Virus record (IMG/VR): IMGVR_UViG_3300006735_000002
Coordinates: 17,571-81,570 of that record
Origin: a virus
Direction: 5' to 3' (one strand)
DNA length: 64,000 bases
Shown here: positions 18,066 to 33,790 of the stretch, in pieces
Position numbering within the stretch: the first letter of the stretch is position 1
Layout: every line of letters begins with the position of its first letter
The notes under the pieces: model-generated
What the model was told of the DNA's origin: nothing
The model's input: the letters and a program-made list of their open reading frames with translations, nothing else
The model's database searches: none
Made by a program: the position numbers and the translations under genes

Positions 18066-20219
18066 TCAGTCCTCGCCTTGGGCGAGAGCTGACCAGGAGG
18101 AGTCACTGTAGGAGACCTGCTGGTCGATGAGATCCAGCTGGGCATCAGCGACGGTGACCGTCTCGATGTCCGGCCGCTCAGCGGTCATGAGCTGCTCGTA
18201 GACGTCACGCCGGAGGCACACACACGGGGTCGGGATGCCGTCGATGCGGCGACTCCGTGTCGCTCCACGCGTCGTCACATTCAGCCAGTCACGGGCAGCC
18301 CACCGAGGCACGACCTCTTCGTAGACGTACCCATATCGGTCGAGAATGCCCTGCAGTGCGTGGGGCTCGATGCAGATTTCCGCCCACTCTGGCTTGCCAT
18401 CTTCCCAGCGGCCAGCCCAGCCGTTGCCGGGGGTGCCCCTCTCAAGTGAGGCTCGGCTACCCCAGAAGCGGTGACGGTTCATGGTCGACCACGAGGCCGC
18501 AGCGATGAAGGCATCGCGAGCACGGTCAGCGTCGTTGGCTCCGTCACGGACAGCCTGGATGAGGAACTCAATGGGGTCACGCGTCGGGGTCGGAACTCCG
18601 AGCGTCTCGCAGACTGCCTGAGCCAGGTCCAGACTGGCGACGTAGGCGGCAAGCCGGCCACCGACAGCGGTGTTGGTGATGCCGGCGTAGCTGTCACGCC
18701 GAGTCTCGAAGGCTTCACGGAAGTCAGGCCACGAGTCCTTGTGGAACACGAGGTACTTGGCCACGCGGCGGCCAAGATGGCCGTAGTGCGTGTAGAGCCG
18801 CCCCCTGACCGTGTCTGCCACGACACGAGCAGTCTGGGCAGGGCCAGAGATGGGGGCGCCCTGGAGGGCCAGCACACGGGCACGAACGCCGCCGTCCTGA
18901 GTGAACGAGGTCAGTCGCTGCTCACCGGTCGAGAGGAGCACCGTGTTCCAAGTGTTCACCTTGTCGATACCTTGCAGCGTGCCCCGTCCTCGACCTTTGC
19001 CGGAGCAGAAGTCGTACAGCACGTCAGCGACATGCTGCTTGTTCTTGACCCGCTTGGTTTCATCGAGGATGAGCGGCAGACTGTGGAGGAAGCCCGCAGC
19101 ACGTTCGACCCACACCTTGGTGCTGTCCCAGGAGTAGATGTAGCCCTCGTCGTCGTCATCTGCGGGGTAGCCCCAGACAGACGCGGCGACGCGCAGGCTC
19201 GTGGTCTTGCCGCTCGAGGTCTCGTTTGACCAATCAACCGCGAAGTTCGCGCACTTGACGATGTGCTGCATGACAGCGGCGACTGACGAGTAGATGGAGA
19301 GCATGGCCAGGGGATGGTCGCGAAGAAGCTCGACGACTTCGAGCCACCCTTCCCAGGTGCCTCCGGTACGCAGCGACTTCATGATGGGGTCCATTCCCTC
19401 CATCGGGAAGAGCTTGAGCTCCTGGTGCTTGTCGAGCTTGATGTGCCCATCAGGCAGCAGGAACGACCCGTCCTTCTGCCAGCCCAAGCGGTTTGCTCCG
19501 TTGGTCAGTGGGATCTTGTGCTGGTTGATGTCCTCGTAGGCAGTGAGCCAGCGAATGGCGTCAGCCGAGGTGATGGATGTGACAGGTGCGCCATAGTCGA
19601 TGAGACCCACGATCTTGCGGCTGTCGAACAAGACCGACCGCTCGACCGTGTGGGTGCGCCACTTGGGTCGACCCTTCCCTGGACCAGGGGGTTCGACCCA
19701 CGCCACTTCGACCTGCATGTGGCCGGTGTCGTTGTCTCGGCCGCGCTGGGTGATGATGATGGGTGCAGTCGCCACCTTCTCACGAGTGACCGTGCCTTCC
19801 TCGAAGTTGGCCTGGAGGGTGTAGACGCCCCCCAGGTCAACGTCGAATCCGTTGGGGATTAGCAGCGAGGGAAAGCCTTCGACGAGGTAGTCAGGCAGGT
19901 TCTCGTTCAGCGTGTTCGTGACACCCAGCTGCTGCAGCACATCCTGCTGCTGCTGCTGACGCGCCCGGCGCTGCGCTCTCTTGATGGTCTGAACCAGCTC
20001 ACGAGAGCGAGCACCCATGCCGCGGATTGACCCCAGCTGCATGAAGAGCGCTTCGAACTGGAACTCGTGCGCGCCCCACTGCCCGGCCATCTGCTCGATC
20101 TTTTCAAGCGAGAAGAAGGCCGTGAAGGTGGGAGCGCGATCGGCAGACTCCATAGACTGGACGGACTCGACAAACTCTTTCAGCTCAGCAACAAGATCAA
20201 CACTTTCGTTGTCGGACAT
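18066..20219 (-). CDS. DUF927/Cch-like replicative helicase
   Basis: Walker A NETSSGKTT, Walker B LPLILDE, GKGRGRG, WNTVLLSTGE, RARVL, YGHLG motifs. Confidence 0.85.
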   Translation of the reverse strand: MSDNESVDLVAELKEFVESVQSMESADRAPTFTAFFSLEKIEQMAGQWGAHEFQFEALFMQLGSIRGMGARSRELVQTIKRAQRRARQQQQQDVLQQLGVTNTLNENLPDYLVEGFPSLLIPNGFDVDLGGVYTLQANFEEGTVTREKVATAPIIITQRGRDNDTGHMQVEVAWVEPPGPGKGRPKWRTHTVERSVLFDSRKIVGLIDYGAPVTSITSADAIRWLTAYEDINQHKIPLTNGANRLGWQKDGSFLLPDGHIKLDKHQELKLFPMEGMDPIMKSLRTGGTWEGWLEVVELLRDHPLAMLSIYSSVAAVMQHIVKCANFAVDWSNETSSGKTTSLRVAASVWGYPADDDDEGYIYSWDSTKVWVERAAGFLHSLPLILDETKRVKNKQHVADVLYDFCSGKGRGRGTLQGIDKVNTWNTVLLSTGEQRLTSFTQDGGVRARVLALQGAPISGPAQTARVVADTVRGRLYTHYGHLGRRVAKYLVFHKDSWPDFREAFETRRDSYAGITNTAVGGRLAAYVASLDLAQAVCETLGVPTPTRDPIEFLIQAVRDGANDADRARDAFIAAASWSTMNRHRFWGSRASLERGTPGNGWAGRWEDGKPEWAEICIEPHALQGILDRYGYVYEEVVPRWAARDWLNVTTRGATRSRRIDGIPTPCVCLRRDVYEQLMTAERPDIETVTVADAQLDLIDQQVSYSDSSWSALAQGED

Positions 20220-20228
20220 CCGTGCTCC

Positions 20229-22301
20229 TTAGGACTGCGGCCCGATGGGTGCGAGGTAGTTGGCTGCGACCGTTGCCAGCCCGTCAGGCGAAGTCTCATC
20301 CTCGAACACCAGGTTGGGATGTGCAAGGCGGAACACCTGCCGCGTGGTCTCGACCCCGTGCTCGACGATGAACATGAGGATGTTGCGCTTGAGAGATCGG
20401 AACTTGCCGCCCCGAGCGCGACCGCTGGATGGTTCGTAGCGCTCTCGAAGCGTCCCCGGCAACATCGGCATGGCCTCAGTCACTTGCACGGCCTCGGCGG
20501 GTGCCGCTTCGGGCATGACGGGAGCAGCTACCCGTGCTGGGGCAGTGGTCACTTTCTTCCGCAGGTCGATGACATTCCAGCCGCGGCGGAACTCCGCATC
20601 GGGCATGACCGTCGAGGTCAACATGACCGTCTGCGGGATGTCCTTGAGTGACGCCATCACTCCGCCAAGGGTGTCAGCATCCCAGCCGCGGTCTTCCGGG
20701 GCCAGGATGGACAGGGGCAGCGGCATCATGTCGTCGAGAACAGCGCACATCGCAAGGGTCACGGCCACACGCTGCGCCTCGGACAGCCCCACCTTCAGGT
20801 AACGGTCACTGCCGCCGCCTTCGTAGAGACCGTAGTAGAACGAGTCACGCCCGTTGTCGGTGACCATGACTCCGAACTCCCAGCCGCCAGGCAGGTACGC
20901 CGTGACCTTCTCACAGAAGACATCGACTTGGTCTGCGAGCAGCTGAGACACGGCCTTCTGGGCCTGACGCTTGTACTCCGAGAACTTCTCGGCGCGGCCG
21001 TTGTTCTCTTCGACCAGCTTCTTGGCCGAGGTCAGTGTCGTCCACTTCGACAACGCATCCTGCAGGCTGGCGAGGTGTGCCTGTGCTGCGGAGAAAGCGT
21101 CGCGAGTCTCCTCTACGGACACGTCATTGCTTGAGGTCGTCGATGCCGGGAGTTCGTCGAGCTCGTTCTCGTACACCGCAATCTGCTCTCGCGTCCCGAC
21201 CACTGAGTCTTTCAGGTGAGACAGAGAGGTTTCCAGCTTCCGCTTGCTCGACATCTTCTGGTCGAGGTCCTTGACCTTGTCCCAGTAGAAGCCGTGGCAG
21301 GCGGTGATGTGATCACTGCCCACGTTCGATGAGCAGATGGGGCAGTCTTCTGTGCCCAGGTCCATTGCCCATTCCAGAGCGTGAAGTGCCCCGATGCTTC
21401 CGCGAGACTCCTTGGTCTCGATGCCAACCAACTTCTTGAGAGCATCCTCAGCGTCGTGCATTCCTGACAGCAGCCGCTGTTCCTCTGTGCGCAACTGACC
21501 CAGCAGGCTGTGGAGAAGCTCTCGCCGCTTGTCGCTCTCGTTGGCACCGGCCGTCTGCAGGTTTGCCTCGTGGAGCTCCTGGGCCTCTCGGACAGCGTCT
21601 CGTGCGGCCAGGACCTTCGCCTGTGTCGGCTTGACTCCGACTTCGTCCAGCAGCTTGTCGCGCAGTGTGGCCTGCGCCTTGGCGTCTGCTCGGTACTTGC
21701 GGGCCATCTTGTCCGCGGTCTCGATCGAGTGAGTGAGCCGGTCAACGGGGACAAGGTCATCGTAGTTCTCGGACAAGGTCTTGTACGTCTCGAAGTCAGC
21801 GCGGATGGCTTGCTCGACGACGTCTTCGTCCAGGTCAGAACAGACCCAAGCCAGGAACCGCTGCCGCGCCTTCTTCGCAGAGCCGGTCAGAACCTCACGA
21901 ACTTCACGGAGAGGGAAGTGGGGACTGTGCTGCTTGCTGGTGTGGGGAATGACCCACCGCGGACGGATGTGAGTCGGCGTCTTGATGCGGCGCTCGTCTC
22001 GCTTGGTCTCCCACTGACAGTGCTCGCCGTTGCTGAGGTTGGCACGAGCGAAGACGACCGACCCGTCATGACCATGCTGGTGTGCCAGGGTCATGATCAA
22101 CGCAGGGTCGCTGGTGATGACGCGGCCCGCCACCTCTTCGGCGGCACCGCTGATGGCCAGGGCGACCGCTTGGACGACGGCGCTCTTGCCGGAACCGTTC
22201 GGTCCGACGATGAGGTTCTTCTTTGTGAGGTCGTGGCTTCGGGGGCTACCGTCAGCGGATTTGATGTTGAACGAGACACTCGTAAGTTCTGGGGTGCTCA
22301 T
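20229..22301 (-). CDS. Rad50/SbcC (SMC-like) ATPase
   Basis: Walker A GPNGSGKS, coiled coils around a CPIC zinc hook, signature LSEAQR, degenerate Walker B ILAPED. Confidence 0.8.
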   Translation of the reverse strand: MSTPELTSVSFNIKSADGSPRSHDLTKKNLIVGPNGSGKSAVVQAVALAISGAAEEVAGRVITSDPALIMTLAHQHGHDGSVVFARANLSNGEHCQWETKRDERRIKTPTHIRPRWVIPHTSKQHSPHFPLREVREVLTGSAKKARQRFLAWVCSDLDEDVVEQAIRADFETYKTLSENYDDLVPVDRLTHSIETADKMARKYRADAKAQATLRDKLLDEVGVKPTQAKVLAARDAVREAQELHEANLQTAGANESDKRRELLHSLLGQLRTEEQRLLSGMHDAEDALKKLVGIETKESRGSIGALHALEWAMDLGTEDCPICSSNVGSDHITACHGFYWDKVKDLDQKMSSKRKLETSLSHLKDSVVGTREQIAVYENELDELPASTTSSNDVSVEETRDAFSAAQAHLASLQDALSKWTTLTSAKKLVEENNGRAEKFSEYKRQAQKAVSQLLADQVDVFCEKVTAYLPGGWEFGVMVTDNGRDSFYYGLYEGGGSDRYLKVGLSEAQRVAVTLAMCAVLDDMMPLPLSILAPEDRGWDADTLGGVMASLKDIPQTVMLTSTVMPDAEFRRGWNVIDLRKKVTTAPARVAAPVMPEAAPAEAVQVTEAMPMLPGTLRERYEPSSGRARGGKFRSLKRNILMFIVEHGVETTRQVFRLAHPNLVFEDETSPDGLATVAANYLAPIGPQS

Positions 22302-22861
22302 GTTGCTCCTTGATGGGTCATGTCGGCCAAGCGCTGCGTGATCGCAGCGAATGGCTCTGTGTCGTAGTGCCAGTACAGATGCGGCAGCATCGGCACTGGG
22401 CGGGGCACAGGGGTGTAGAAGATGAGGGCGCTGCCCTTGGGCGCCCCCGTCGCGCGCTCACCGTCGGGCCTCACGAACTTGATCCGAGGGGAGAGGAAGA
22501 TGACGCACAGTGCGTTTGGGCAGTTGGCCACCCACTTGCGCCAGTACGTCGTGTCGGTGTTGGCGTAGACCAAGAGCGCCACGGTCTCGCAGCCTTCGTC
22601 ACAAGCCTGCGCGGCTTTCTTGAACCAGTGAGAGATGCCTCTGCCGTACGGCGGGTTGCACCACACGCGCTTGCCGTAGTCGGACCAGCGCACACGGAGA
22701 GCATCGGTCTTGGGGTCGATGAACGGGTCGACACGAGCTGCGTCGAGGTTCGTTGCGCAGGCGTCGAGGTTAAACGCGCAGACCGTATCGATTTGGTTGA
22801 AGAGGTTGTCGGGGGTCATCCAGTCGTCTTTACCCAGCGTACGGGTAGTCGGAGCAGTCAC
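22298..22861 (-). CDS. dam: Phage DNA N6-adenine methyltransferase (T1/HP1-type Dam family)
   Basis: DDWMTP, LDACA, WCNPPYG, RIKF motifs. Confidence 0.9.
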   Translation of the reverse strand: MTAPTTRTLGKDDWMTPDNLFNQIDTVCAFNLDACATNLDAARVDPFIDPKTDALRVRWSDYGKRVWCNPPYGRGISHWFKKAAQACDEGCETVALLVYANTDTTYWRKWVANCPNALCVIFLSPRIKFVRPDGERATGAPKGSALIFYTPVPRPVPMLPHLYWHYDTEPFAAITQRLADMTHQGAT

Positions 22862-23055
22862 TCGTCACCTCCTTTGGCGTAGCCCTCGCTCGCCCATCCC
22901 CCGCCTCGCAGCGAGAAGTTGGTCTTGGATACCTGTCGAACGGTGCTCTCGAACCCGCACTTCGAACAGGGTTGATCTTTTTGAAGGTTTTTCAGTGAGA
23001 CCAGGACCTCGAACTGATGGCCGCACTTCCGGCACCGCTGCGAGAACAGCGGCAT
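22858..23055 (-). CDS. FmdB-family zinc-ribbon protein
   Basis: MPLF..RCRKCGHQFE...CSKCG...FSLRGGGW; start at ATG 23055. Confidence 0.85.
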   Translation of the reverse strand: MPLFSQRCRKCGHQFEVLVSLKNLQKDQPCSKCGFESTVRQVSKTNFSLRGGGWASEGYAKGGDE

Positions 23056-23354
23056 CACTCTTCCCACCCGATGTAGCGGAACGTCGGCGTGTTCTGCCCC
23101 ATCCAAGCTCCGCTGGTGTTGAACGAAAACCACTCAGCGGCGTCCGTGTAGCTGCATTCTCCGTCCTCCATGATGGCTTCAACGCACATCTCAGCGTCGT
23201 AAACGGCCACTATGAACCCAGGCTCTCTCGGCCATTGGTCCTCAGGGGTGTCGGTCATGCCCACGATGCAGGGGTCATAGACGCTGCGTGGTTCGAGCAG
23301 CAGCGCGTCAGGGTTGTAGTTGGACAGGGCTTCGAGGATCTCTTCGTAGGTCAT
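23055..23354 (-). CDS. Hypothetical phage protein
   Basis: 99 aa acidic, AEWFSFNTSGAWMGQNTP C-terminus, translationally coupled to neighbours. Confidence 0.7.
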   Translation of the reverse strand: MTYEEILEALSNYNPDALLLEPRSVYDPCIVGMTDTPEDQWPREPGFIVAVYDAEMCVEAIMEDGECSYTDAAEWFSFNTSGAWMGQNTPTFRYIGWEE

Positions 23355-23815
23355 TCCTCACCGCCCTCGTCGCGAACGACGATGCGACCCCACGCCTTGT
23401 AGTCATCACCGGGCAGTCGAGCGGTGTCCTTGGCTTGGTGGTACTCGTTCTTTCGGTAGTCCCACACCCAGGTGATCTTCCCCTCACGGAGGAACCCTTC
23501 GATCATCTCGAAGGTCGCACGGCCGCACACCGTATCCATCACACCAACGTACTGAGCCGGGCGGATGATGCCGTGGAACCGCGGAGAGCCGTCCCACAAC
23601 CGGCCGCTCACGACCGACGGAGGCCAGGACTTCCAACCACCGGCATCCCGAGAGCGGGAACGGTAGTCGTCGCGTCCTGCCACCACGGTGATGGTGTGCT
23701 CTGGGTACGCTTCTCCCAGCCCCTCGGTCAGACTGTCTCGCCAATCGTTTACCGTTCCGTCCTCGCATACTCTGTCATGTGCCAGGAAGAACCTGTAGTC
23801 TTTGTCGTTGCTCAC
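23351..23815 (-). CDS. Hypothetical protein
   Basis: 154 aa, strong AAGGAGGG RBS, coupled stop/start with the next gene. Confidence 0.7.
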   Translation of the reverse strand: MSNDKDYRFFLAHDRVCEDGTVNDWRDSLTEGLGEAYPEHTITVVAGRDDYRSRSRDAGGWKSWPPSVVSGRLWDGSPRFHGIIRPAQYVGVMDTVCGRATFEMIEGFLREGKITWVWDYRKNEYHQAKDTARLPGDDYKAWGRIVVRDEGGEE

Positions 23816-23833
23816 TTTCCCTCCTTATTGGCC

Positions 23834-23864
23834 ACCGTAGTAAGCCGTTGCGTGCCTTTGTCAA
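23834..23864 (-). promoter_or_regulatory. Possible internal sigma70-type promoter
   Basis: TTGACA at 23864-23859 in the same TGTTTGACA context as the 34505 promoter; -10 ambiguous (TACTAC at 16 nt or TACGGT at 19 nt). Confidence 0.4.
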
Positions 23865-23873
23865 ACACTTGTA

Positions 23874-26699
23874 TCACACTTCTGCCCAGGTTTGGCCGAC
23901 ATCAGCCTCGCAGGTGAATGGGACAGACCATCCTGGGACATCGATGGTCATGCACTCGGTCATCTTCTTCTGCGCCCAGTCCGCCAGATGCTCCGGCACT
24001 TCGACCACGAGTGAGTCATGGACTTGCGCGGTCAAGCCTGTGCCTGGTCCCCACTGCTGGAACGGGAATGCTTCAAGCACTCTCTGCTCGGCGACAGCCA
24101 TGATGGCGGCTTCGCACGCGAGGATGGGGAAGTTGACGACCTCGTTCTTCTTGCCGTCCTGCAGGCCGCCGGAGCGACGACCGAACAACGGGTCTTCCAT
24201 GTACCCTTGCTGGTCATACAGTTTGAGCATTCGGTTCCAGGCTGCCTGCCAGTCAGGCTCAGACTCATGCCAGACGCGGTCAAAGAACCGCACTTGGTTG
24301 AGGTCAAAGTGCAGGTAGGGGAGCTTTGTTTCGAGCTCGCCGTCTTTGGTGAAGCCAGTCATCTCGGTCGAGCGGATCACACTGTGCTTGGTCTCTGCCG
24401 CCGCCCAGTAGATCGAAGCGTAGCGATACGTCTTGATGAGTTCGCGCAGCTGGCCAGCCTTCCCTTTCTTCGAAGGCTTGTGCGTTGCCTTAAGACTGAA
24501 CCCCTTTGTCCAACCTGAAGCCTGTTCAAAATCCTTTCCGAACAAGTCGTGAGCGAGCCAGCAGTGCGGGTCAAGGTTCTCTGCGAAGCACTCAAGCAGG
24601 CGCTGGATGTTCCAGTAGTTGGCGGTGACTACGAGGTGCGCAGCGCTCAGGTCGCATCCCACCAGCACGTTGCCGGGAGACGCACAGAAGACCGTACGCA
24701 CACCACCGAGGTCCTTGCGGCTCGACTGGTTCTGCATGTTTGGTCGGCTCGAGGACAGTCGCCCTGGCGCTGTCGTGTGACTGTTCCACGTGGAACGGAC
24801 TCGACCGTCAGGGTGCAGTGACCCACCGGCAGAGAGCGGTCGCAGGTTGTACAGCTGCGTTCCCAAGACCTTGGTCTTCACGCGACGGTACTGCCGAAGG
24901 GTCAGCAGGAAATCTCGCTGAGACTCAGTGATGTGGGGGCTGGCCATGTGTGCTCGGAGCACCGCGTCACCTGTGCCGGGCAGACCTGTCTCTGTGTAGA
25001 ACTCCTTGGCGTCCATGCCGTAAGGGATGCCGAGGTCCCACTGGCCGTAGAGCAGGTCTCCGATCTGTCCGAAGGACCCAGGGTTGAACTCCGCGCCCTT
25101 CTTGCGGCGGATGCCGATGCGGTCAGCCAGGTCCTGCAGCTTCCCGTACAGCTGCTTCGCTACACCCTCGAACTTCGTGGTGAGCATCTCGACCTTGACC
25201 TGATTGACGTAGATGCCGTTCTGGTGCATCTGAACGCACATGTCCTGCCGGGCATGGTCAAGATGACGGAGCGTCCAGGGGGTCGAACTCGGCCAGGACG
25301 TAGGCTTTGCCCACTCCGGCAGCGGCCGACCCGCACCGTTCGAGTCCGCAGACCGACGCAGTGGCTCTGCGATGCGGGCGTTGACCACGGTGTCGTACTG
25401 GCAGTAGAGCAGCCGGCTCTTGACCGTCTTGCGTGAGGTCGCTGCTCCGTCTCCGCTCTCACTGGTCTCCCACTTGTGTACGTCAGTCAGCCGACGACCA
25501 GTAGGCTTGAGACCCTTGGGCAGGTCAGGGTGGGTGAAGCGAGCATCGAACAGTGTGTCGATGATGGGTGTCGGCTTCACGCCGTAGCAGTGCTCGACTA
25601 CTTGGCGGTCGAAGTAGCCGACGTTGTGCCCGACCTTGGTCTTGCTCTCGTCGAGGAAGAACTCGAGGAGGATGTCGTGAATCTCCTGCGCCTCATACGG
25701 CAGCAGGTGCCGTACCTTCTCCCCCTTGACTGCCTGATGCATGAGCTCCATGTTGGTGTGGATACCCACCGTACGGGCAACCTGATGCGGCTTCTCCCAG
25801 GGCATCGTGGAGTTGCCGTGGATGTCGATGTCTGGCGTAGCGATGGCGAGGCAGTCGACCTGGATGTCGCGCACGTTGATGCCATCGGTCTCAAGGTCGT
25901 AGACCCAGAAAGGTGACGGCACTGCCAGCCACTCGCGCAGCTGGTCTGGCGTTGGCTGCGTCAAGAACTCTGGCTCACGCCAGTACAGCGCATCGTTGAA
26001 CCAGCGCCACGCCTTGCCCAAGGTCGCGTAGAACTGTGGCCTCACGCTGGGGCGGTGCTTTACGAAGCCTGGGTCGTAGGTCGAGATGACCTTGACCATC
26101 CAGTCCGACGTGGACTGAGTCCAGTCAAAGGCTTGCCACGTCAATCGGCTGGCCTTGACCTCGCGCATGTCACCTTCGAGGTCGGACATGCTGGACGAGG
26201 TACCGAGCACGCGCTGGGCTGCCGTGCTGCCCATCGGGATGACGTAGCCGTAGTCTGCCAACCTGCTCTGCAGGTATGGGGCGCAGCAGTCTGCGGGGTG
26301 AGGCAGCTCCTCCTCTGCTTGACGCTTTGCTTCCGCCGCAGACATTCCTGCGGTTTGCAGCTTCTTCTGCGCGGCTTTGCGCTTGCGGCGAAGCGTCGCC
26401 TCCATCTTCTTCCACCCATCTCTTGGGGCGCATGACACCACGAAGAACAGGTCAATCATGGTGCGGTGTAGACCGTTCGCCTTGAGCGCACGGTCCCACT
26501 CCCCACCGTCCTGGCCGCTGAGCGGTCGTCCGTGGGTGACGTCGCCCAGGCGTGGTGCCTCAAGCACTGCCGCGACCGTGGTGGACTCGTGAACCTCGGG
26601 AGGTACCGGAGACCACTCACCGTCTGACAGACACCCCTTTGGGCCGAGAGGGCATCGACCACACTGCGCGCCACGAGAGCGTGGATCGAAGCTACTCAT
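23874..26699 (-). CDS. polA: Family A DNA polymerase with N-terminal uracil-DNA-glycosylase-like domain and 3'-5' exonuclease
   Basis: UDG family-4-like N-terminus (CGRCPLG, LEAPR, GRPLSG, TYDPG); exonuclease YDLETDG, GHNVGYFD, YCQYD; polymerase GRLSSSRPNMQN, CDLSAAHL, RELIKTYRY, VHDS. Confidence 0.92.
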   Translation of the reverse strand: MSSFDPRSRGAQCGRCPLGPKGCLSDGEWSPVPPEVHESTTVAAVLEAPRLGDVTHGRPLSGQDGGEWDRALKANGLHRTMIDLFFVVSCAPRDGWKKMEATLRRKRKAAQKKLQTAGMSAAEAKRQAEEELPHPADCCAPYLQSRLADYGYVIPMGSTAAQRVLGTSSSMSDLEGDMREVKASRLTWQAFDWTQSTSDWMVKVISTYDPGFVKHRPSVRPQFYATLGKAWRWFNDALYWREPEFLTQPTPDQLREWLAVPSPFWVYDLETDGINVRDIQVDCLAIATPDIDIHGNSTMPWEKPHQVARTVGIHTNMELMHQAVKGEKVRHLLPYEAQEIHDILLEFFLDESKTKVGHNVGYFDRQVVEHCYGVKPTPIIDTLFDARFTHPDLPKGLKPTGRRLTDVHKWETSESGDGAATSRKTVKSRLLYCQYDTVVNARIAEPLRRSADSNGAGRPLPEWAKPTSWPSSTPWTLRHLDHARQDMCVQMHQNGIYVNQVKVEMLTTKFEGVAKQLYGKLQDLADRIGIRRKKGAEFNPGSFGQIGDLLYGQWDLGIPYGMDAKEFYTETGLPGTGDAVLRAHMASPHITESQRDFLLTLRQYRRVKTKVLGTQLYNLRPLSAGGSLHPDGRVRSTWNSHTTAPGRLSSSRPNMQNQSSRKDLGGVRTVFCASPGNVLVGCDLSAAHLVVTANYWNIQRLLECFAENLDPHCWLAHDLFGKDFEQASGWTKGFSLKATHKPSKKGKAGQLRELIKTYRYASIYWAAAETKHSVIRSTEMTGFTKDGELETKLPYLHFDLNQVRFFDRVWHESEPDWQAAWNRMLKLYDQQGYMEDPLFGRRSGGLQDGKKNEVVNFPILACEAAIMAVAEQRVLEAFPFQQWGPGTGLTAQVHDSLVVEVPEHLADWAQKKMTECMTIDVPGWSVPFTCEADVGQTWAEV

Positions 26700-27072
26700 G
26701 TTCGCTCCATCGGCAGCGCCGCTTCAGAGGCTTACCCATGTGGAGCTCCAGCTCATGGTGTGCGGCGTACCGCTTGACCGCCTGGCGCAGTGCGACCACC
26801 TGTTTGTCCCACCCGATGCGGTCTTTGATGAGCCCGTACGAGAGCTTCTCAGTGTTCCGCAGGCGGATTGCCTCGAGAATCATGACCTCCCGAGCGAACA
26901 CCCGCGGACGCTTGCTGAGGTCAAGCGAACCCAGGTGGGTGTAGACCTGCTTGCGCAGGGTCGACGTGTTGACGCCAAAGCTCGCGGCCACTTGGTCCCA
27001 GGTCTCTCCTGCCTCGACTCTGCTCTTGGCAGACCTCAGCTCAGGGAATGTCCAAGTGTGTCGCGGAGCCAT
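26692..27072 (-). CDS. Helix-turn-helix DNA-binding protein
   Basis: GETWDQVAASFGVNTSTLRKQ plus a second HTH-like segment; start ATG 27072. Confidence 0.7.
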   Translation of the reverse strand: MAPRHTWTFPELRSAKSRVEAGETWDQVAASFGVNTSTLRKQVYTHLGSLDLSKRPRVFAREVMILEAIRLRNTEKLSYGLIKDRIGWDKQVVALRQAVKRYAAHHELELHMGKPLKRRCRWSEHE

Positions 27073-27269
27073 CAGCCCCTCACAGGGGTCATGCCCGCGA
27101 GGAAGCGAGCGACGCTCTTGCACCACGTACGATGCTTCTCGTCGATGTAGATGACCATCAGCGGGTATCTCTCAGGGTCATCTGCGTGCTCGTTCACAAC
27201 CATGCGAACGCGGTAGTAGTTTCCATTGCGGTGCTGCCACCGGGTACCTGGCCGAACTTCTTTTTCCAT
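27072..27269 (-). CDS. DUF1653-like small protein
   Basis: WQHRNGNYYRV...MVIY...TWCKSVARF pattern. Confidence 0.7.
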   Translation of the reverse strand: MEKEVRPGTRWQHRNGNYYRVRMVVNEHADDPERYPLMVIYIDEKHRTWCKSVARFLAGMTPVRG

Positions 27270-27283
27270 GCTGCTCCCAGAGA

Positions 27284-27318
27284 GACGCCCCCGCCGCCTT
27301 TTTGACGACGGGGGCGTT
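27284..27318 (-). terminator. Intergenic hairpin (terminator, processing or stability element)
   Basis: About 14-bp stem with an A5 loop, G-U pairs valid on the minus strand, downstream of the SSB gene; no U-tract. Confidence 0.45.
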
Positions 27319-27338
27319 GTGTCAGACCGTGTTGTTAC

Positions 27339-27947
27339 TCAGCCGCGGGGCGGAGGCGGGAAGCCTGCGCGCTTGGGCGGAGCCGGCATTGCCTTGGTGT
27401 TGCTGGGCGAAGCGCTCGCCGAAGTTTCACGGCGCCAGGGGAACTGGCGGGTGTCTTCGGGGGAGGAGCCCTTCTCTTCGTACGCGTCGAAGGCGTCCTT
27501 GTTGATGAAGGACTTGACCTCGCCGTACGCCTTGGTGCCCTTGGGGGTGTCCTCGGGGCGACCAAGCCATGCGATGTAGGCCGTGCGGCTGACGAGGTGG
27601 TCCGTGTTCAGACCGTTCTCGGACAGGTAGTCCTCGGTGATACCGGAGGACAGAGCGACACGCTTGAGAGCGCCGACCATGCCAGCGATCTTACCCTTGC
27701 GGGCATCCTCGCTCATCTGAGCAAGGGCCGGTGCCATCTCGCCGTCAGCGTTGAACGGGCAGCTGCCGATCTCGCGAGTGGTCGCGCCGTCGGGGAACTT
27801 GAGGTGGATGAAGTAGCTGAAGTTGCCCTGACGATCGAGGACTCCGCGGTCTTCGAACTTGGTGATCTCGACAGCGTAGTAGCCGGTGCCGGGGGGAAGC
27901 GAGCCGGTGTTGACTGCGCTGGTGACTTCGGGCGGGATGAAAAACAT
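27339..27947 (-). CDS. Putative single-stranded DNA-binding protein (DUF669-like)
   Basis: LPPGTGYYAVEITKFE N-terminal motif, disordered Pro-rich tail, adjacent to the AAA_24 ATPase; start at MFFIPP. Confidence 0.65.
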   Translation of the reverse strand: MFFIPPEVTSAVNTGSLPPGTGYYAVEITKFEDRGVLDRQGNFSYFIHLKFPDGATTREIGSCPFNADGEMAPALAQMSEDARKGKIAGMVGALKRVALSSGITEDYLSENGLNTDHLVSRTAYIAWLGRPEDTPKGTKAYGEVKSFINKDAFDAYEEKGSSPEDTRQFPWRRETSASASPSNTKAMPAPPKRAGFPPPPRG

Positions 27948-28012
27948 CTGGTGAATCCAGGTGAGAGTGATGATGGTGTTGTGGTAGATCCCAGAGACTG
28001 CTGGGGCAGCCG

Positions 28013-29005
28013 TCAATCAGACGGAGGGGGTGGAGCCTTGGTCGCAGCCTTCTTCGGGGCGGGCGGCTCAAGGTTCTCAAAGATGCTGCGGCTGCGCCGC
28101 TTCTGGATGACGCCTCTTGCGATGCCATCCTGTACGGCCCAGCGGATGTGGAGCTGAGGCTCACGGCCGCTACCCTTGGCGAACTTCTGCGCCTTGTTGA
28201 CGCCGGCGTCAATGGCAGCGCTGACGTCACCTTCCTGCAGGGTCTTGGCGACAAGGTCGGCAATCTCGTCCTGCCACTCAAGGCCAGGGCGGCGAGACAG
28301 TCCGTAGTCAACGGCGCTGGCCCGGAGGAGCTCACGGACGTTGGGCGGGCTCTCAGCGTACGCCACACCGTTCCGGTCACCGGTCACCCAGGTGGTGTCC
28401 CAAGTGTCGACAAACAAGCCGTTCTTGGTCCAGGGGTCTGGGTAGTCCTTGTTGACGATGGCGCGGGCGTTGAAGTCACACCAAGCAGGGACACGCACAA
28501 CCTGACCCTTGCTGCCCAGAGATGGGCCGCCGGGTACGAAGGTTCCGTCCATGCCCTGGCCGGGTGCCTGCTCGTGGGCCACGAGGAAGACGCTCACGCC
28601 GATGTGTCGGGCGCGCTCTGCCAACCGAAGGAGCTTGTCCTTCAGCTGCTGGTAGGGCCAGAACTTGTCGACCTTGCCGCTGTTTGTGATCTTGGGGTTG
28701 TCCTGCCAGACACGCAGGCTTGTCTCGCACAGCGCGGTCATGCCGTCGACACAGATCTCAGGGTAGTCCTCGACCAACCCCTGCGACTCGAGCATGTCCA
28801 GCAGACCAAGCAGGTCGACAAGCGTCCTGACCGGATGCTCATAGATCGTGGGCTCGAATCCCCACTCGTTTGTCGCGACGCTCTTGATCGCGTTCATCCC
28901 CTCGCCCGGAATCCACAGGGCGTTGGGGAAAGCGCTTGCGACCATTGAGGTCTTCATGCGCTTGGGCTGGCCAAAGACCATGCCCATGACCGTGGCATTC
29001 GCCAT
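28013..29005 (-). CDS. AAA_24/Sak4-like ATPase (recombinase)
   Basis: Variant Walker A GQPKRMKTS, CVDGMT, LVAHEQ, GGPSLG; GGAGG RBS before MANATV. Confidence 0.8.
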   Translation of the reverse strand: MANATVMGMVFGQPKRMKTSMVASAFPNALWIPGEGMNAIKSVATNEWGFEPTIYEHPVRTLVDLLGLLDMLESQGLVEDYPEICVDGMTALCETSLRVWQDNPKITNSGKVDKFWPYQQLKDKLLRLAERARHIGVSVFLVAHEQAPGQGMDGTFVPGGPSLGSKGQVVRVPAWCDFNARAIVNKDYPDPWTKNGLFVDTWDTTWVTGDRNGVAYAESPPNVRELLRASAVDYGLSRRPGLEWQDEIADLVAKTLQEGDVSAAIDAGVNKAQKFAKGSGREPQLHIRWAVQDGIARGVIQKRRSRSIFENLEPPAPKKAATKAPPPPSD

Positions 29006-29047
29006 GGTCGCCTCCAGTGATGTTGTTGTTGTAGTGCCCCGAAAGGC

Positions 29048-29120
29048 CCGTCGACTGTAACACACTGGTCCCAGTCGACGGCGCCTGTTTGTTGTTTACA
29101 GTCAGGGCGGGTCTGTAAAC
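29048..29120 (-). promoter_or_regulatory. Two intergenic hairpins
   Basis: CCGTCGACTG/CAGTCGACGG and GTTTACAG/CTGTAAAC inverted repeats between speD and the AAA_24 gene. Confidence 0.4.
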
Positions 29121-29136
29121 TAACTCGACTCTTTCC

Positions 29137-29544
29137 TTATTCGTTGATCTCCCACCGATGCTGAGTGTCAGGCTCATGGGACCTGCGGATGTTGCGAACC
29201 CGCCCACCTGTCAGACTCAACTTTTCGGTAAGGAAATCAACCACTTGCTTGACGTTGAACTCCTTGCAAGAGAACAAGTCGAAGCTCACGTGACCACGGA
29301 GGGGCCACGTGTGGATGCTGCCGTGAGACGTGGTCAGAATCACAGTCCCCGTCACTCCCCCATCGTCCTCTCCGTTTTCAACCGTGGGATTGAGTGGTAC
29401 CGAGACCATCTCGGCGGGCTTCAGAATCTGCATACCCACCATCACAACGAGCTCGTTGAGCAGCGCACTGATCAACTCAGGGTCGTTGAGGCGCTGCGAG
29501 TCTTGGGTCCAGGCGTCAATGATTACGTGCCTACCTGTTTTCAT
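29137..29544 (-). CDS. speD: S-adenosylmethionine decarboxylase proenzyme
   Basis: GRHVIID, GVTGTVILTTSHGSIHTWP, DLFSCK motifs. Confidence 0.88.
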   Translation of the reverse strand: MKTGRHVIIDAWTQDSQRLNDPELISALLNELVVMVGMQILKPAEMVSVPLNPTVENGEDDGGVTGTVILTTSHGSIHTWPLRGHVSFDLFSCKEFNVKQVVDFLTEKLSLTGGRVRNIRRSHEPDTQHRWEINE

Positions 29545-29549
29545 GATGA

Positions 29550-30530
29550 TTACTCCGGGCCGTACTGGCAAATCTCAAACGCACCGCACTTACCGTAGCG
29601 GTGGTAGCAGGCGAGCTCACTCCGGGTCAGCTCCCAATCGCCCGGACCCGTTCGTCCCTCGGCGAACATCACGAGCTGCTGCGCCAGGGAGTGCGCCTTC
29701 GTGTAGACCTGTCGGGCAAACTGCTGGTCACGCCACGGCGTAGCCGGAACATGCTGCCGGCTCACGGCGTACGGCTCTCTGCGCTGCACCAGGTTGAGGA
29801 CAACGCCCCCGAAGTTCGAACCGTACAGCTGTCGACCAGCGATGCGGTTGACGGCGAACTGTCCATCCATGGCGTACTGCTGAGCACGAGTCTTGCTCAC
29901 GCTCCCGCCGGTCACCTTGTGGTCCCAGATGTATGTCCGCCTGTCCTGGCTGTGTGTCATCACCAGGTCGAAGCGCTTGGTGACCACGATGGGCTTGCCG
30001 TGCTGCAGCGCTGGCACTCCGGCAGTCGGCTCTTCAAGACCAGGGCAGTCCAGAAGCTCGGGCTCGGCGAGGTTCTTGTCAAGCCACAGTCCGAAGTCCC
30101 CCTTGTGATTCCGCCCTACGGTCATCTTGATCTGCATCTCGACACCTTCAACACGGTCCGAAACATACGGCTCACGCTGTCGGTAGCGGCGGAAGACCTC
30201 GAGAGTGTTGGCGATGAAGTGCGCCGCCTCCGTACCCTCCTTCTCCGCTTCATCGACCCATGCCCGCAGCCCCTCCTCAGGCGGCAAGAAGTAGTTGGGA
30301 TCACTGATGTTTTCTCCCTCGTACTCAAACCCACCCTGCTCGCACCCAAGTCGAGCGTAGTAGTGCGCCAGGATGGTGTGGCCCATCGACCCCTGGGTCA
30401 GCGGGTCAGCTCCGATGAACTGCTTGCCCTGCACGTTGATGAGGAACCAGAGGAAGTCGCAGCTGAAGGCAGGCCCCCAGAAGGACCACCCCGACGTGCT
30501 GCGCCCGGTGTTGATGAGGATGGGGTTCAC
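29550..30530 (-). CDS. PD-(D/E)XK Cas4/AddB-like exonuclease with probable Fe-S cysteines
   Basis: SCDFLW, QGSMGH, VEMQ, RFDLV, IWDHK, QFAVN and C-terminal CYHRYGKCGAFEIC; GTG start 30530. Confidence 0.8.
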   Translation of the reverse strand: MNPILINTGRSTSGWSFWGPAFSCDFLWFLINVQGKQFIGADPLTQGSMGHTILAHYYARLGCEQGGFEYEGENISDPNYFLPPEEGLRAWVDEAEKEGTEAAHFIANTLEVFRRYRQREPYVSDRVEGVEMQIKMTVGRNHKGDFGLWLDKNLAEPELLDCPGLEEPTAGVPALQHGKPIVVTKRFDLVMTHSQDRRTYIWDHKVTGGSVSKTRAQQYAMDGQFAVNRIAGRQLYGSNFGGVVLNLVQRREPYAVSRQHVPATPWRDQQFARQVYTKAHSLAQQLVMFAEGRTGPGDWELTRSELACYHRYGKCGAFEICQYGPE

Positions 30531-30697
30531 GGCTGCTCCGGGGGGTTGGGGAGGGGCTGCCAGAAGAACTGGCCGATGCCTGCCAGGGAAAACCACGACT
30601 CGTAGTTGAGCCACGCGCCATCGTCTTCTTGCTTGAGGCAGAGGATGTTGAACGTGTCGTGCTGCCACATGAGCACTTCTTCGTCGGACGGAGGCAT
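30527..30697 (-). CDS. Small hypothetical protein
   Basis: 56 aa, WQHDTF...WFSL...FFWQPLPNPP. Confidence 0.55.
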   Translation of the reverse strand: MPPSDEEVLMWQHDTFNILCLKQEDDGAWLNYESWFSLAGIGQFFWQPLPNPPEQP

Positions 30698-30734
30698 GGT
30701 GCGCCGACTGTCGGTCCAAATCACGGCTGCTCCG
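30527..30734. repeat. 14-bp direct repeat TCACGGCTGCTCCG
   Basis: Identical at 30527-30540 and 30721-30734; both copies encode a gene end EQP-stop. Confidence 0.75.
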
Positions 30735-30987
30735 CAAGCCAGTCTTCGTGCGCCTTCGCGCACGCCCTGGCGTAGTTGATGATGTCGGCAGGGGTCTGCT
30801 CAACCGAAGTCGCGATGACGCAGGCTGCTCCCGGCAGGTAGTTGGCCTTGCCGCTGGAGAGGTGGTTTCTCACATCGACCTTTGCTTCGATGTCGTCGAA
30901 CCTTCCTCCGGCAGCCACACAGAAAAACAGAGTGCAGCACAACCAGACAATCATGAGAGCAATCTCTGTGGTGGTTCGATCTGTCAT
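30721..30987 (-). CDS. Small membrane-anchored protein
   Basis: N-terminal hydrophobic helix IALMIVWLCCTLFFCVAAG. Confidence 0.6.
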   Translation of the reverse strand: MTDRTTTEIALMIVWLCCTLFFCVAAGGRFDDIEAKVDVRNHLSSGKANYLPGAACVIATSVEQTPADIINYARACAKAHEDWLAEQP

Positions 30988-32933
30988 GCGTCTACTCCAA
31001 AGAGTGTGTCGAGTACCGATGCCTTCATGGCCTCGTGGTCGTCAATGCCGAGCAGCTTGTCGTCCATGCCCTGGTACTGCTCAGCCGCCAGGAACTCCTT
31101 GATGGGAGTGATCTTGTCAGCCAGGATGCCAGCCACCTTCTCGTCGTAAGTCTTCCTGGCGAGCACCACCTTGAGCAGCGTGGGTCGACCACCGATGCGG
31201 TCGAACCGCCCCTTCCACTGCTCGAAGTCTCCGGGCCGCCACGGCAGCATGGCGAAAATGGCGAGGTCTGCAGACTGCAGACCATCGACCGACTCACCAA
31301 ACGCCTGGCCGGTAGCGATAAGAAGGCACGGTCCTTCGCTCTCGCGGAAGCTCGTGACCATGTCCTCACGGTCGCGCTCGTCCGTGCCACCGTGACCCCA
31401 GCTCATCGCGGGCATGTGGCCACCGAAGTTCTTCTGCTTGACCTCCTTTGCCAGAGCCTTCTCGATGTACGAGGCCCAGTCCTCACAGTCCTGGCGACGC
31501 GCCGTGAACAGCACGACCTTGCCACCACCGCGGAGACCTTCGAGCACTTCCTCGACCACGTACTTGCGCTTGCGGCTGGCCGCCTCCATGAGGTTCGCTT
31601 CGAGCGCACGCTCCTTGTCGAACTCGGTGCGTGTCTTGAGCGCCTCCTTCTCCGCCTTGGCGATGACCCGCTTGAACGCCGCGGGGCGGTTCTGGTCAGA
31701 CGGCGAGAGCCACACGACCTGGACGCGGGTGGGGGGCAGCTGACCGTGCGACTCGGTGTGCGTCACCTCTTGCATCAGGTAGGCCGCGCGGTACTTGAGT
31801 TCTTCGATGTGGCTGCTGCCCTTGTCGTCGATGCCGCCGTACTCGCCCTCCTTCGCAGCGCAGTACCGCTTGGCGTAGGAGCTGAAGCCCATGCCGTAGG
31901 CGCCGGGGGCGAGCAGGTCGAGCTGACTCCACAGTCGACGAGGGCGCCCGTCGTCCAGCGGCGTGGCGGTCAGGCCACCCCGCAGACGGATCGAAGGCAG
32001 GCGGCTCACGTCCATGGCAGCAACCGCACGGGTCTCTCGCGTGTCGGTCTTGGTCCGACGCTTCTCGAACTCAATCTCACCGTTGCTGTTGAAGATGGCC
32101 TTCCACCGTTTGGGCTGACCAAAGGTGTGGAGCTCATCGAACACCAGCACGGACGGTGCGAGCTTCGCAATCTCCTGGGTGTAGTCAGGGAGTGACTGCG
32201 CACCGAAGACCACGAAGGGGCGGATGCGAAGGTCGACACACTCTGCGAGGTAGTCCTGCAGGGTCTGGTCGTTCTTCCGCATCTGACCACGAGGGATCAC
32301 ACGGTGAGGCTTGAGGTTGGTGTACTCCTGAACCTGGTCCCACCAGACTCGGCGGGCCTTGGCGGGAGCAATGACACACACCGGACCCTTCTCGGTCAGA
32401 GCAGACAAGGTAGACGTCAGCGTCTTGCCTGACCCGCAAGGGTAGACCAGCTTGAACCAGGGCCTGGTCGAAGCCCAGTAGACGCCACGCGCCTGGTAGT
32501 CGGTGATGAGGTCAGTCACGAATGACTTGACCTCGCCTCGGTTGACCATGCCGGCGACCACCTGCCGTCCGTACTCGGCCATGGTGGCCAGCGCTTCCTC
32601 GTCGTCAGAAGGCCACGCGAAGATGTCGCCCACGTTGATGGCGTGCTCAATCTGGTAGGTCACACCAGCTTCCGCCAGCCTGTGCTCGAAGAGCCACGCA
32701 GCGTTGAGGGGGACGAATGCCTTGTAGTAGTCGTAGCCGTTGACCGGCTCGGAGGGGTTCTCCCGAAGCAGCTTGGTCATGCGGTACCAGCGACGGTCAT
32801 GTGCCATGTGGCCGTACGCCAGCACGCCAGGCAGCTGCTGCTCAATGCGAGCGAGCACGCTGCCGGAGCGACCTGTCGCTCGGTAGATGTAGTGGGGTTG
32901 GTCTTTGAGCGGTGAGAAGACGTCAGGCATCAT
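30984..32933 (-). CDS. SNF2-like superfamily 2 helicase
   Basis: PCGSGKT, FDELH, LTATP, LWSQL, QWKGRFDRIG. Confidence 0.9.
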   Translation of the reverse strand: MMPDVFSPLKDQPHYIYRATGRSGSVLARIEQQLPGVLAYGHMAHDRRWYRMTKLLRENPSEPVNGYDYYKAFVPLNAAWLFEHRLAEAGVTYQIEHAINVGDIFAWPSDDEEALATMAEYGRQVVAGMVNRGEVKSFVTDLITDYQARGVYWASTRPWFKLVYPCGSGKTLTSTLSALTEKGPVCVIAPAKARRVWWDQVQEYTNLKPHRVIPRGQMRKNDQTLQDYLAECVDLRIRPFVVFGAQSLPDYTQEIAKLAPSVLVFDELHTFGQPKRWKAIFNSNGEIEFEKRRTKTDTRETRAVAAMDVSRLPSIRLRGGLTATPLDDGRPRRLWSQLDLLAPGAYGMGFSSYAKRYCAAKEGEYGGIDDKGSSHIEELKYRAAYLMQEVTHTESHGQLPPTRVQVVWLSPSDQNRPAAFKRVIAKAEKEALKTRTEFDKERALEANLMEAASRKRKYVVEEVLEGLRGGGKVVLFTARRQDCEDWASYIEKALAKEVKQKNFGGHMPAMSWGHGGTDERDREDMVTSFRESEGPCLLIATGQAFGESVDGLQSADLAIFAMLPWRPGDFEQWKGRFDRIGGRPTLLKVVLARKTYDEKVAGILADKITPIKEFLAAEQYQGMDDKLLGIDDHEAMKASVLDTLFGVDA

Positions 32934-33790
32934 CCCTCCAGTGAAGAGAAGTCAGAGTCGTTGACCAGGAGCGCAGCGACTGGACCCTTCCAGCCGCAAC
33001 TCTTCCGGTGATTGCAGTAGGCGTTGAGCTGGCGGGTGGGGTCGAGCCACCACCACACAGCCTCTCGCCGACAGCGTGGGCACTCGACCAAGCGGACAGC
33101 GTCGTCACTGACCACGCCACCCAGAGCATGGCCGAGGTTCGCACGTGCATCGGGGTCGAGATGTAGTTGGCTCCTGTCTCCTGGCACTGGCATAGAGTGC
33201 AGAAGCAGGGCCGGTCGGATGGGCACCACGTTGTCCTCGGGTGCCCACTTCATGATGTCGTCAACACGGAGCAGCGGAGCTCTCACAATGCGGGACTCGA
33301 AGTGCCGCTGATGCGCAGGGTCCTCGAGGTCACACGCCGGCAAGACCCACGATCGTGAGATGTCCTTGCAGTGGCGGTCGATGGTTCGGCCGCAGTGCTC
33401 TTCCGCCCAGCGCCACGCCGCGGGGTACTCCTCCTTGCGGAGGTCCTGGTCGAGAGGCAGCACCACCCGGAACTTGTGATGCTCCGGGCGGTGAGACCAT
33501 GAGGTGTGCAGGATGAGCGCCCACTGACCCCACGCTTGCAGCGCCTGGTCAATGGTCGTCCCATCGTCGTAGTCGAGCACAAGGCACGAGGCGCCTTGGG
33601 CGTTTGCCTTCTTGCGTCGTGGCGGCTGGAATGTCGCGGGGCTCCACTGCGGGAGCTTGCGCTTGTCCCATACGCGGAACGCCTCGCCGGGCTGGGCCAG
33701 CAAGTCCGACAGCTGGTCGAACGTCAGCTGCTGCGGGTGCGCCTCGGTCAAGAACAGGTTGTCGAACAGGCTGACCCAGAACTTTCTCAT
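32930..33790 (-). CDS. AEP-superfamily primase with C-terminal zinc finger
   Basis: LVLDYDDG, HTSWSH, KFRVVLPL, DRHCKDISR; CPRC...CNHRKSC. Confidence 0.8.
   Translation of the reverse strand: MRKFWVSLFDNLFLTEAHPQQLTFDQLSDLLAQPGEAFRVWDKRKLPQWSPATFQPPRRKKANAQGASCLVLDYDDGTTIDQALQAWGQWALILHTSWSHRPEHHKFRVVLPLDQDLRKEEYPAAWRWAEEHCGRTIDRHCKDISRSWVLPACDLEDPAHQRHFESRIVRAPLLRVDDIMKWAPEDNVVPIRPALLLHSMPVPGDRSQLHLDPDARANLGHALGGVVSDDAVRLVECPRCRREAVWWWLDPTRQLNAYCNHRKSCGWKGPVAALLVNDSDFSSLEG

Follow-up and report, generated by a model that had tools for sequence, protein, structure and literature searches.

Family A DNA polymerases have two textbook fixed points, the steric-gate Glu and the minor-groove Gln, which are also main targets of polymerase engineering. 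We describe here a phage polymerase of this family in which both are replaced, encoded on the minus strand of a 64,000-nucleotide stretch of DNA (hereafter the window) that corresponds to bases 17571-81570 of the 81,570-bp IMG/VR virus record IMGVR_UViG_3300006735_000002. Among the closest described architectures are the N4-like polymerases with a fused uracil-DNA glycosylase (UDG) domain (UDG-PolA; cluster #17, type enzyme N4 gp39) which, according to the accessible part of the survey by Czernecki et al. 2023, carry as this enzyme does a family-4 UDG-like domain, then a 3'-5' exonuclease and then PolA within 800-950 amino acids (PMC10201439). Over the 19 PolA clusters of that survey, the same part of the text counts the gate (position A2) among the highly conserved positions and names B3 as the most variable of them. 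A review of the Bst polymerase, as far as its accessible text goes, places the counterparts of Klenow Q849, R668, E710 and D882 close together in the Bacillus fragment, where they interact electrostatically, has the conserved Arg and Gln hydrogen-bonding the minor groove at the primer terminus, and sets the sugar of the incoming nucleotide above E658 and beside F710 (PMC10520511).

In the enzyme encoded by the window, His688 stands at the steric gate, Leu860 takes the place of the minor-groove Gln, and Glu863 lies three residues further on. Across its relatives with His at the gate, His688, Leu/Ile860 and Glu863 are a locked triad. The gene and the motifs concerned are the following:

23874..26699, minus strand: the whole polymerase gene, with UDG-like, 3'-5' exonuclease and family A polymerase domains (Pfam, PHROG, AlphaFold2, Foldseek)
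24759..24770, minus strand: the TGR motif, which reads A-P-G-R (residues 644-647), with Arg647 kept and Pro645 in place of Thr666 (alignments)
24630..24653, minus strand: motif A, DLSAAHLV (683-690), with the catalytic Asp683 and, at the steric gate, His688 (codon CAC, 24636-24638)
24405..24446, minus strand: motif B, the O-helix, RELIKTYRYASIYW (752-765) (alignment; a helix is predicted at 747-762 in the AlphaFold2 model)
24105..24134, minus strand: motif 6 on helix Q, NFPILACEAA (856-865), with Asn856, Leu860 and Glu863 (alignments)
24012..24026, minus strand: motif C, QVHDS (892-896), with His894, the catalytic Asp895 and, where Klenow has E883, Ser896

An earlier note, made from the sequence of the window alone, had drawn attention to the span 23990-24680, which corresponds to residues ~674-904 and runs from motif A through motif C. 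Aligned to Taq by phmmer, DLSAAHLV falls on DYSQIELR, NFPILACEAA on NMPVQGTAAD and QVHDS on QVHDE, and motifs A, 6 and C fall in the identical register when a 70-sequence profile is aligned to Klenow. These two alignments did not reach motif B, the register of which comes from a separate profile alignment that sets Gordonia phage Margaret RKKAKAVNFGFLYG and phi18 RTASKKIQFGIVYQ over RELIKTYRYASIYW. The resulting Klenow equivalences are His688=E710, Arg759=N761, Tyr760=F762, Tyr764=Y766, Trp765=G767, Leu860=Q849 and Ser896=E883, and further Arg647=R668, Arg752=R754, Lys756=K758, Asn856=N845, Glu863=A852 and Pro645=Thr666. The His that had been proposed for the Klenow E710 gate is therefore found there in both alignments, the profile not restoring a Glu, and the proposed loss of Q849 within NFPILACEAA likewise appears against both Taq and Klenow. 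Three of the substitutions named for motif B (N to R, Tyr at 762 and G to W) are placed at the same positions by the Margaret/phi18 alignment. Two features had been missed: Glu863, which corresponds to Klenow A852 and is part of the coupled set, and Pro645, where the TGR motif has lost its Thr.

The open reading frame (ORF) encodes 941 amino acids without internal stops and matches DNA_pol_A (PF00476, 1.2e-33), DNA_pol_A_exo1 (3.4e-8) and the 'DNA polymerase' family PHROG 17 (5.9e-75), with Pfam UDG at 24.2 bits against a cut-off of 24.3. An AlphaFold2 model built from 70 relatives has a mean predicted local distance difference test score of 93.1 and a predicted template modelling (TM) score of 0.90, and its best match among solved structures in Foldseek is Klenow 1kfs (E 2e-26), with phage G20c Pol I, Bst and KlenTaq also found. 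Among viral predicted structures the best match has 28% identity, followed by UDG-carrying polymerases of cultured phages at 13-16%. Motifs A, B and C, the two catalytic Asp, the Arg, Lys and Tyr of the O-helix and the ExoI-III residues are all present. The gate Glu, a conserved residue of family A, is not, being replaced by His688; since this residue does not define the fold, membership of the family stands.

We followed the pocket through two sets of relatives. The first is a 121-row alignment of the enzyme and 120 homologues (41-94% identity) among the matches listed by a word-indexed search, which found 302 relatives; many of the 120 sit on contigs of 65-74 kb. In these rows His688, Arg759, Tyr760 and Glu863 each occur 120 times with one gap, Leu860 115 times with Ile in five further rows, and Ser896 in 117, a constancy well beyond chance. 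In addition D683, D895, R752, K756 and Y764 show no variation among 70 relatives. Replacements that are invariant across a clade do not represent decay, and the earlier assessment that the gene is no pseudogene is borne out by the retention of both catalytic Asp, R754, K758, Y766 and the exonuclease residues together with a signature fixed across the clade. That signature residues are fixed in relatives down to ~31% identity agrees with a rewritten pocket that is under selection. Some traits first taken as part of the rewriting proved less telling. Gln708 and Arg712 are indeed absent from the enzyme, but this is a trait of its small subclade, for Gln is kept in 105/121 rows and Arg in 103/121, and the motif A of most relatives reads DLDQAHLR. 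Tyr at 762 is present but dominates both types of polymerase distinguished below, and the HDS of motif C recurs as HDS or HDA in the sister group that has Glu at the gate, as HDS in phi18 and as HDA in Margaret.

The second set comes from an exhaustive search over 1.84 billion representatives, which returned 9258 matches at E <= 1e-3 and 410 at E <= 1e-30; at 50% identity these 410 clusters make up a large uncultured UDG-PolA group that the published 19-cluster PolA map misses. Combined with the 150 best of the 9258 matches, the enzyme forms a 151-row set whose gate column holds 77 His, 69 Glu, one Asp and four gaps. Every His row with both other columns filled (75/75) carries Leu or Ile at 849 plus Glu at 852. 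Among the 66 Glu rows with both filled, 849 is Gln in 65 and Ser in one, and 852 is Ala, Gly, Cys, Met or Ser, never Glu. No other columns of the protein separate the His and Glu types as well as 688, 860 and 863 do. Column 645, the TGR Thr two residues before Arg668, ranks after them, its three commonest residues being V (51), P (17) and I (5) in the His type and T (40), S (18) and G (6) in the Glu type, and is followed by columns 814, 817 and 701. The same pattern holds among 170 loci (169 from IMG/VR and the window's own region), with 75 H/L/E, 68 E/Q/(G or A), two D/Q/A and no mixed combination, 19 loci being incomplete.

Outside this group Glu occupies the gate in 6/6 phage enzymes compared (N4 gp39, SPO1-like phi18, Gordonia Margaret, Thermus P23-45, a contig of 'Acinetobacter phage MD-2021a' and the best-scoring faecal phage contig), Gln occupies 849 in the 5/5 of these six where motif 6 aligned, and six chromosomal PolAs of Spirochaetota metagenome-assembled genomes (MAGs) are canonical. 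No INPHARED record exceeded 27% identity to the polymerase by tblastn. A description of His at a family A gate was not found in the literature outside subscription journals, including the accessible parts of PMC10201439, PMC13697223, PMC10520511 and PMC9069017, of which Figure 3 or the supplements of PMC10201439 may show rare variants. We regard the His-gate set as a new and so far undescribed form of an enzyme family that is itself very well known.

Phylogenetic analysis suggests that the His type arose repeatedly. A FastTree phylogeny of 140 rows with the three triad columns removed (11/151 rows having been dropped for coverage below 70% or a missing gate residue) contains five switches. An IQ-TREE phylogeny of 65 of these rows, drawn at random as 33 His rows (including the enzyme and four oddly placed ones) and 32 Glu/Asp rows, contains five to six. 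The four odd His rows (P0199, P0219, P0260 and P0201), all of which have the full triad, are enclosed with 31 Glu rows by a branch with a support of 99 in the Shimodaira-Hasegawa-like approximate likelihood-ratio test (SH-aLRT). Branches with SH-aLRT >= 95 force at least two switches, with all three residues changing together each time.

The record is bounded by 123-bp direct terminal repeats and has an estimated completeness of 100%. In this complete genome we found no second PolA and no PolB match, and the 941-amino-acid enzyme is therefore taken as the replicase. Its gene recurs in marine metagenome runs of 13 studies, with at least half of the gene's sampled words present in four marine runs, two of which may be the source sample. 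A contig from a second marine study is ~98% identical over 23874-25250, and 21/24 listed differences are synonymous, none of the 24 falling in the codons of Pro645, His688, Leu860 or Glu863 (24 of the contig's 25 differences are listed, and the count is exclusive of 229 lower-ranked differences across the four runs).

How might such a pocket work? The four coupled columns fall on the Klenow/Bst cluster outlined above, together with the residue two before its Arg. On balance we lean toward the view that this enzyme is active and, with its proofreading function, serves as the only replicative DNA polymerase of the phage, and that in the large clade of uncultured-phage UDG-PolAs to which it belongs the polar residues grouped beneath the primer terminus and the incoming sugar have been rewired as one set, a combination to which we give somewhat better than even chances. 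The acid would have left motif A, where His688 now stands, and reappeared on helix Q as Glu863, one turn further on; the hydrophobic Leu860 would have taken the place of the Gln there, and Pro, Val or Ile that of the Thr two before the TGR Arg. Judging from the sequence, Glu863 could serve as a new charge partner of Arg647, orient His688, or both, with Arg647, both catalytic Asp and Tyr764 unchanged. The imidazole of His688 would fill the space under C2' and still exclude ribonucleotides; as it takes up as much room as a side chain with a carboxylate, exclusion of a 2'-OH is the simpler expectation. The enzyme would then copy ordinary DNA from ordinary deoxynucleoside triphosphates. At the last base pair the enzyme would no longer touch the minor groove of the template strand directly, as a Gln849-type side chain does, for which reason we would expect changed mismatch sensing or kinetics rather than a new nucleotide chemistry. 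In a widespread group of phages from marine and other environments, both fixed points of the family have been exchanged together in the only replicase, as a single locked set, which shows a second workable solution for the family A pocket and offers a direct test of what these side chains do in sugar exclusion and minor-groove checking.

Several observations weigh against this interpretation. A single His clade is not rejected by the approximately unbiased (AU) test (log-likelihood difference 34.1, p = 0.192), and well-supported branches yield only two independent pairs (sign test p = 0.5), so the perfect coupling could be largely inherited from one ancestor. Glu-type loci were partly retrieved with a pattern that includes the Glu of motif A, leaving the states at 849 and 852 free, and their count is therefore not an unbiased frequency. 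An assay of any His-type or Glu-type enzyme was not found in the literature. Finally, many genes of the phage and most small ones of its relatives have no recognisable family, so that a modification pathway of an unrecognised kind is possible.

Of the other explanations, the one that fares best holds that the exchange is functionally silent, His/Leu/Glu being a compensated swap equal to Glu/Gln/Ala that is kept since the intermediates are unfit. We consider this unlikely, if deserving of attention. The two types share their replication module and domain architecture, overlap in GC content and differ in the primase-helicase as the sole accessory gene that tracks the switch, all of which speaks for a silent change, as does the failure of the AU test to reject a single origin. 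Such a swap accords poorly, however, with the loss of the Gln849-type minor-groove contact, which the accessible text of the Bst review ties to Klenow fidelity (PMC10520511). Moreover, columns 645, 814, 817 and 701 shift along with the triad, suggesting that more was remodelled than a minimal compensation would require.

Further from our preferred reading is the idea that the triad is a second family A pocket design with a chemistry of its own. Its His gate, held by a relocated acid and lacking the minor-groove Gln, might let through nucleotides or templates that the Glu/Gln design turns away, be it damaged templates, bases modified in the minor groove, or sugars of the ribo or 2'-modified kind; or it might mark DNA modified by unrecognised genes. 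This we hold to be distinctly unlikely; were it true, the enzyme would provide a ready-made scaffold for polymerase engineering.

The earlier note had named modified nucleotides among its possibilities. To a pocket adapted to a non-canonical nucleotide, with a modified base or sugar in the phage DNA that the polymerase must accept or select, we assign only a low probability. The closest described UDG architectures do include the SPO1-like and SP15-like enzymes of T-modified phages, as the available part of PMC13697223 describes them, and the HDS of motif C is shared with phi18; many phage genes are unannotated, and the replication module includes genes for an S-adenosylmethionine (AdoMet) decarboxylase and a Dam methylase. 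The known modification genes that were searched for are nevertheless absent. Six-frame searches of the complete genome, run with positive controls, found neither PF00303 (thymidylate synthase/hydroxymethylase), PF01702 (TGT/DpdA), PF00383 (dCMP deaminase) nor PF00692 (dUTPase), and they found no PF00709 (PurZ), so that the co-occurrence with PurZ expected of a DpoZ-type enzyme, as in 2-aminoadenine phages, fails. Apart from the AdoMet decarboxylase and Dam, no nucleotide-metabolism family turned up when 50 ORFs of the window were scanned with Pfam and 20 queries with PHROGs. Likewise, 20 representatives of type-specific flank clusters from 154 typed relatives had no Pfam match to nucleotide metabolism, only to helix-turn-helix proteins, DUFs, an integrase and the primase-helicase types. 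The region of the AdoMet decarboxylase occurs in one other locus only, and the UDG of the window's enzyme lacks the His of its motif B. The changed residues, moreover, face the sugar and the minor groove and not the major groove, into which the known phage base modifications (C5 of pyrimidines, C7 of purines) point. GC content does not separate the types, the ranges of the His-type and Glu-type phages overlapping. The proposed link to modified nucleotides accordingly finds no backing in the complete genome, in the flank clusters or in a replication module that both types share. There is no sign of unusual DNA in the genome, and an altered nucleotide choice is, as judged from these searches, unsupported.

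A relaxed or switchable sugar discrimination, in which the His gate would admit ribonucleotides, 2'-modified nucleotides or RNA templates, has a similarly small chance of being right. The residue affected is the very position that controls the exclusion of ribonucleoside triphosphates in family A, a role that Astatke and colleagues reportedly examined in 1998. An effect of the E658A substitution is described for Bst in the accessible text of PMC10520511. His is, besides, absent from the gate of the six characterised or nearest phage enzymes checked. Yet an imidazole should be no smaller than the side chain of Glu, and Tyr is found at 762 and kept at 766. Faithful DNA synthesis is also what one would expect of a sole replicase whose proofreading exonuclease is intact.

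That the protein is degenerate or inactive, as the replacement of several textbook 'invariant' residues might imply, is scarcely credible for the sole polymerase of a complete genome in which both catalytic Asp, R754, K758, Y766 and the exonuclease residues are all kept, the replacements themselves do not vary over the 121 close rows or among the 75 His-type representatives, and a second marine strain differs mostly synonymously.

The two domains that precede the polymerase are located as follows:

25995..26693, minus strand: N-terminal family-4 UDG-like domain, residues ~3-235 (Pfam, alignments)
25290..25967, minus strand: 3'-5' proofreading exonuclease, residues ~245-470, with ExoI D268/E270, ExoII N359/D364 and ExoIII Y432/D436

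In the exonuclease D268, E270, D364, Y432 and D436 are invariant in 70 relatives and N359 nearly so, and the full pattern DENDYD occurs in 67/77 His-type and 61/69 Glu-type representatives. Four iron-sulphur (Fe-S) Cys of the UDG-like domain (13, 16, 90 and 139) are found in 61/77 and 61/69, respectively, the remainder being gaps. The UDG motifs themselves are altered in the window's enzyme, motif A reading LEAPR for GEAPG and motif B YDPG for HP(A/S). Loss of the motif B His and of the glycines of GEAPG is limited to the enzyme's subclade, which combines LEAP(R/K) with YDPG (the latter in 15/121 rows); Glu-type members mostly have GEAPG and HP(A/S), and most of the superfamily (G/A)EAPG and HP(A/S). 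From these motifs the glycosylase looks catalytically intact in most of the UDG-PolA superfamily, and on account of LEAP(R/K) plus YDPG it is probably inactive in the subclade of the window's enzyme.

The polymerase gene belongs to a replication module in which all genes lie on one strand:

18066..33898, minus strand: replication module (Pfam, PHROGs)

Its members are a DUF927 primase-helicase, an SMC-like ATPase, the Dam methylase, a 154-amino-acid ORF, the polymerase, a 225-amino-acid ORF, a Sak4-like ATPase, the AdoMet decarboxylase, a 417-amino-acid protein, an SNF2 helicase and a primase-like ORF. Clustering 2507 ORFs from the 170 loci, with 154 typed relatives, revealed six neighbours common to the flanks of both polymerase types:

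Sak4-like ATPase: 64 His-type loci, 52 Glu-type loci
SMC-like ATPase: 59 His-type loci, 52 Glu-type loci
417-amino-acid protein of unknown function: 53 His-type loci, 43 Glu-type loci
SNF2 helicase: 51 His-type loci, 40 Glu-type loci
225-amino-acid ORF: 57 His-type loci, 22 Glu-type loci
154-amino-acid ORF: 51 His-type loci, 31 Glu-type loci

The 417-amino-acid protein (29550-30803, minus strand) has no Pfam or PHROG match. It ranks among the neighbours of the polymerase that are conserved best, and probably belongs to the replisome as a component not yet recognised. The type of primase-helicase follows that of the polymerase, the DUF927 form (18066-20219 of the window, minus strand) occurring in 41 His-type and no Glu-type loci and a 735-amino-acid DUF5906/VapE-like form (L160:2974-5181) in 13 Glu-type and three His-type loci. 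This match may reflect shared ancestry or co-adaptation within the replisome. The AdoMet decarboxylase gene (29137-29571, minus strand; PF02675, 6e-23) has a counterpart region in only one other fetched locus, where an opposite-strand ORF was called. The Dam-type N6-adenine methyltransferase gene (22298-22861, minus strand; PF05869, 2.9e-24) lies ~1 kb downstream of the polymerase gene and is not conserved in the relatives' flanks by clustering, the ORF caller having chosen overlapping frames there.

Elsewhere in the window, GC content is ~61% throughout and no tRNA genes were found. An ORF of 5099 amino acids (2291-17590, plus strand) occupies ~19% of the genome and in a three-piece scan matched only two PHROGs of unknown function; the scan recognised no virion RNA polymerase in it, despite the N4-like replication genes. 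His-type relatives occur on phage-sized contigs (L179, 73.4 kb; L180, 70.0 kb; L181, 28.8 kb) in MAGs of Planctomycetota and Myxococcaceae, the polymerase of the 73.4-kb contig in a Planctomycetota MAG being 69% identical, and Glu-type relatives are co-binned with MAGs of Phycisphaeraceae and Pirellula. The contigs that carry His-type polymerases are probably binned phages, for which co-binning gives a weak hint of the host. Many relatives (P0018, P0082, P0098, P0209, P0224 and others) measure 1200-2034 amino acids and match the enzyme in two to five stretches; P0018 has a LAGLIDADG domain (PF03161), and P0082 and P0098 have an HNH_3 domain (PF13392). Their length, split matches and domains suggest that the polymerase genes of some relatives are interrupted by inteins or homing-endonuclease inserts.

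Compared with known systems, the enzyme is structurally closest to the large fragments of bacterial Pol I (Klenow, Bst BF and KlenTaq), which match its structure best (Foldseek E 2e-26 to 1e-23, target TM 0.77-0.81) and with which all motifs can be aligned. These enzymes are nonetheless only 16-20% identical to it, lack a UDG domain and have Glu710, Gln849, Ala852 and Glu883; relative to Taq, it also has extra segments before and after the O-helix. With the UDG-PolAs of the SPO1-like and SP15-like phages it shares a UDG fused ahead of the exonuclease and PolA (Missoury et al. 2026, in the accessible part; PMC13697223), and phi18 also has HDS. SPO1-like phi18, however, keeps the Glu gate and Gln849. 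The accessible text of PMC13697223 ascribes an active UDG to the SPO1-like and SP15-like enzymes and DNA derived from 5-hydroxymethyluracil to their phages, whereas the enzyme studied here has LEAPR/YDPG in a genome without PF00303, PF00383 and PF00692. The SP15-like enzymes are further described there as having two large inserts and a C-terminal domain, at 1177-1306 amino acids.

The likeness to the N4-like phages goes beyond domain order. Both enzymes replicate, or in the present case would replicate, phage genomes of ~70-80 kb that carry terminal repeats, and the DUF927-type primase and Sak4-like ATPase among the neighbours resemble N4 gp43/gp44. The loss of the UDG motif B His is likewise reported for cluster 17 in the available text of PMC10201439, although most of the enzyme's own superfamily keeps this residue. 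On the other hand, N4 gp39 has Glu at the gate (DFASLEDR) where the window's enzyme has His, cluster 17 has Phe at B3 according to the same part of PMC10201439 where it has Tyr760 (Tyr in 120/121 rows), and N4 gp39 scores 53.7 bits against the family hidden Markov model compared with 1431.9 for the enzyme itself. Nearest of all is the Glu-type sister group which, at 31-38% identity, has the same three-domain architecture, four Fe-S Cys, exonuclease residues, mostly Tyr762, HD(S/A) and the shared module, but which keeps Glu710, Gln849, Ala/Gly852 and the Thr/Ser of the TGR motif.

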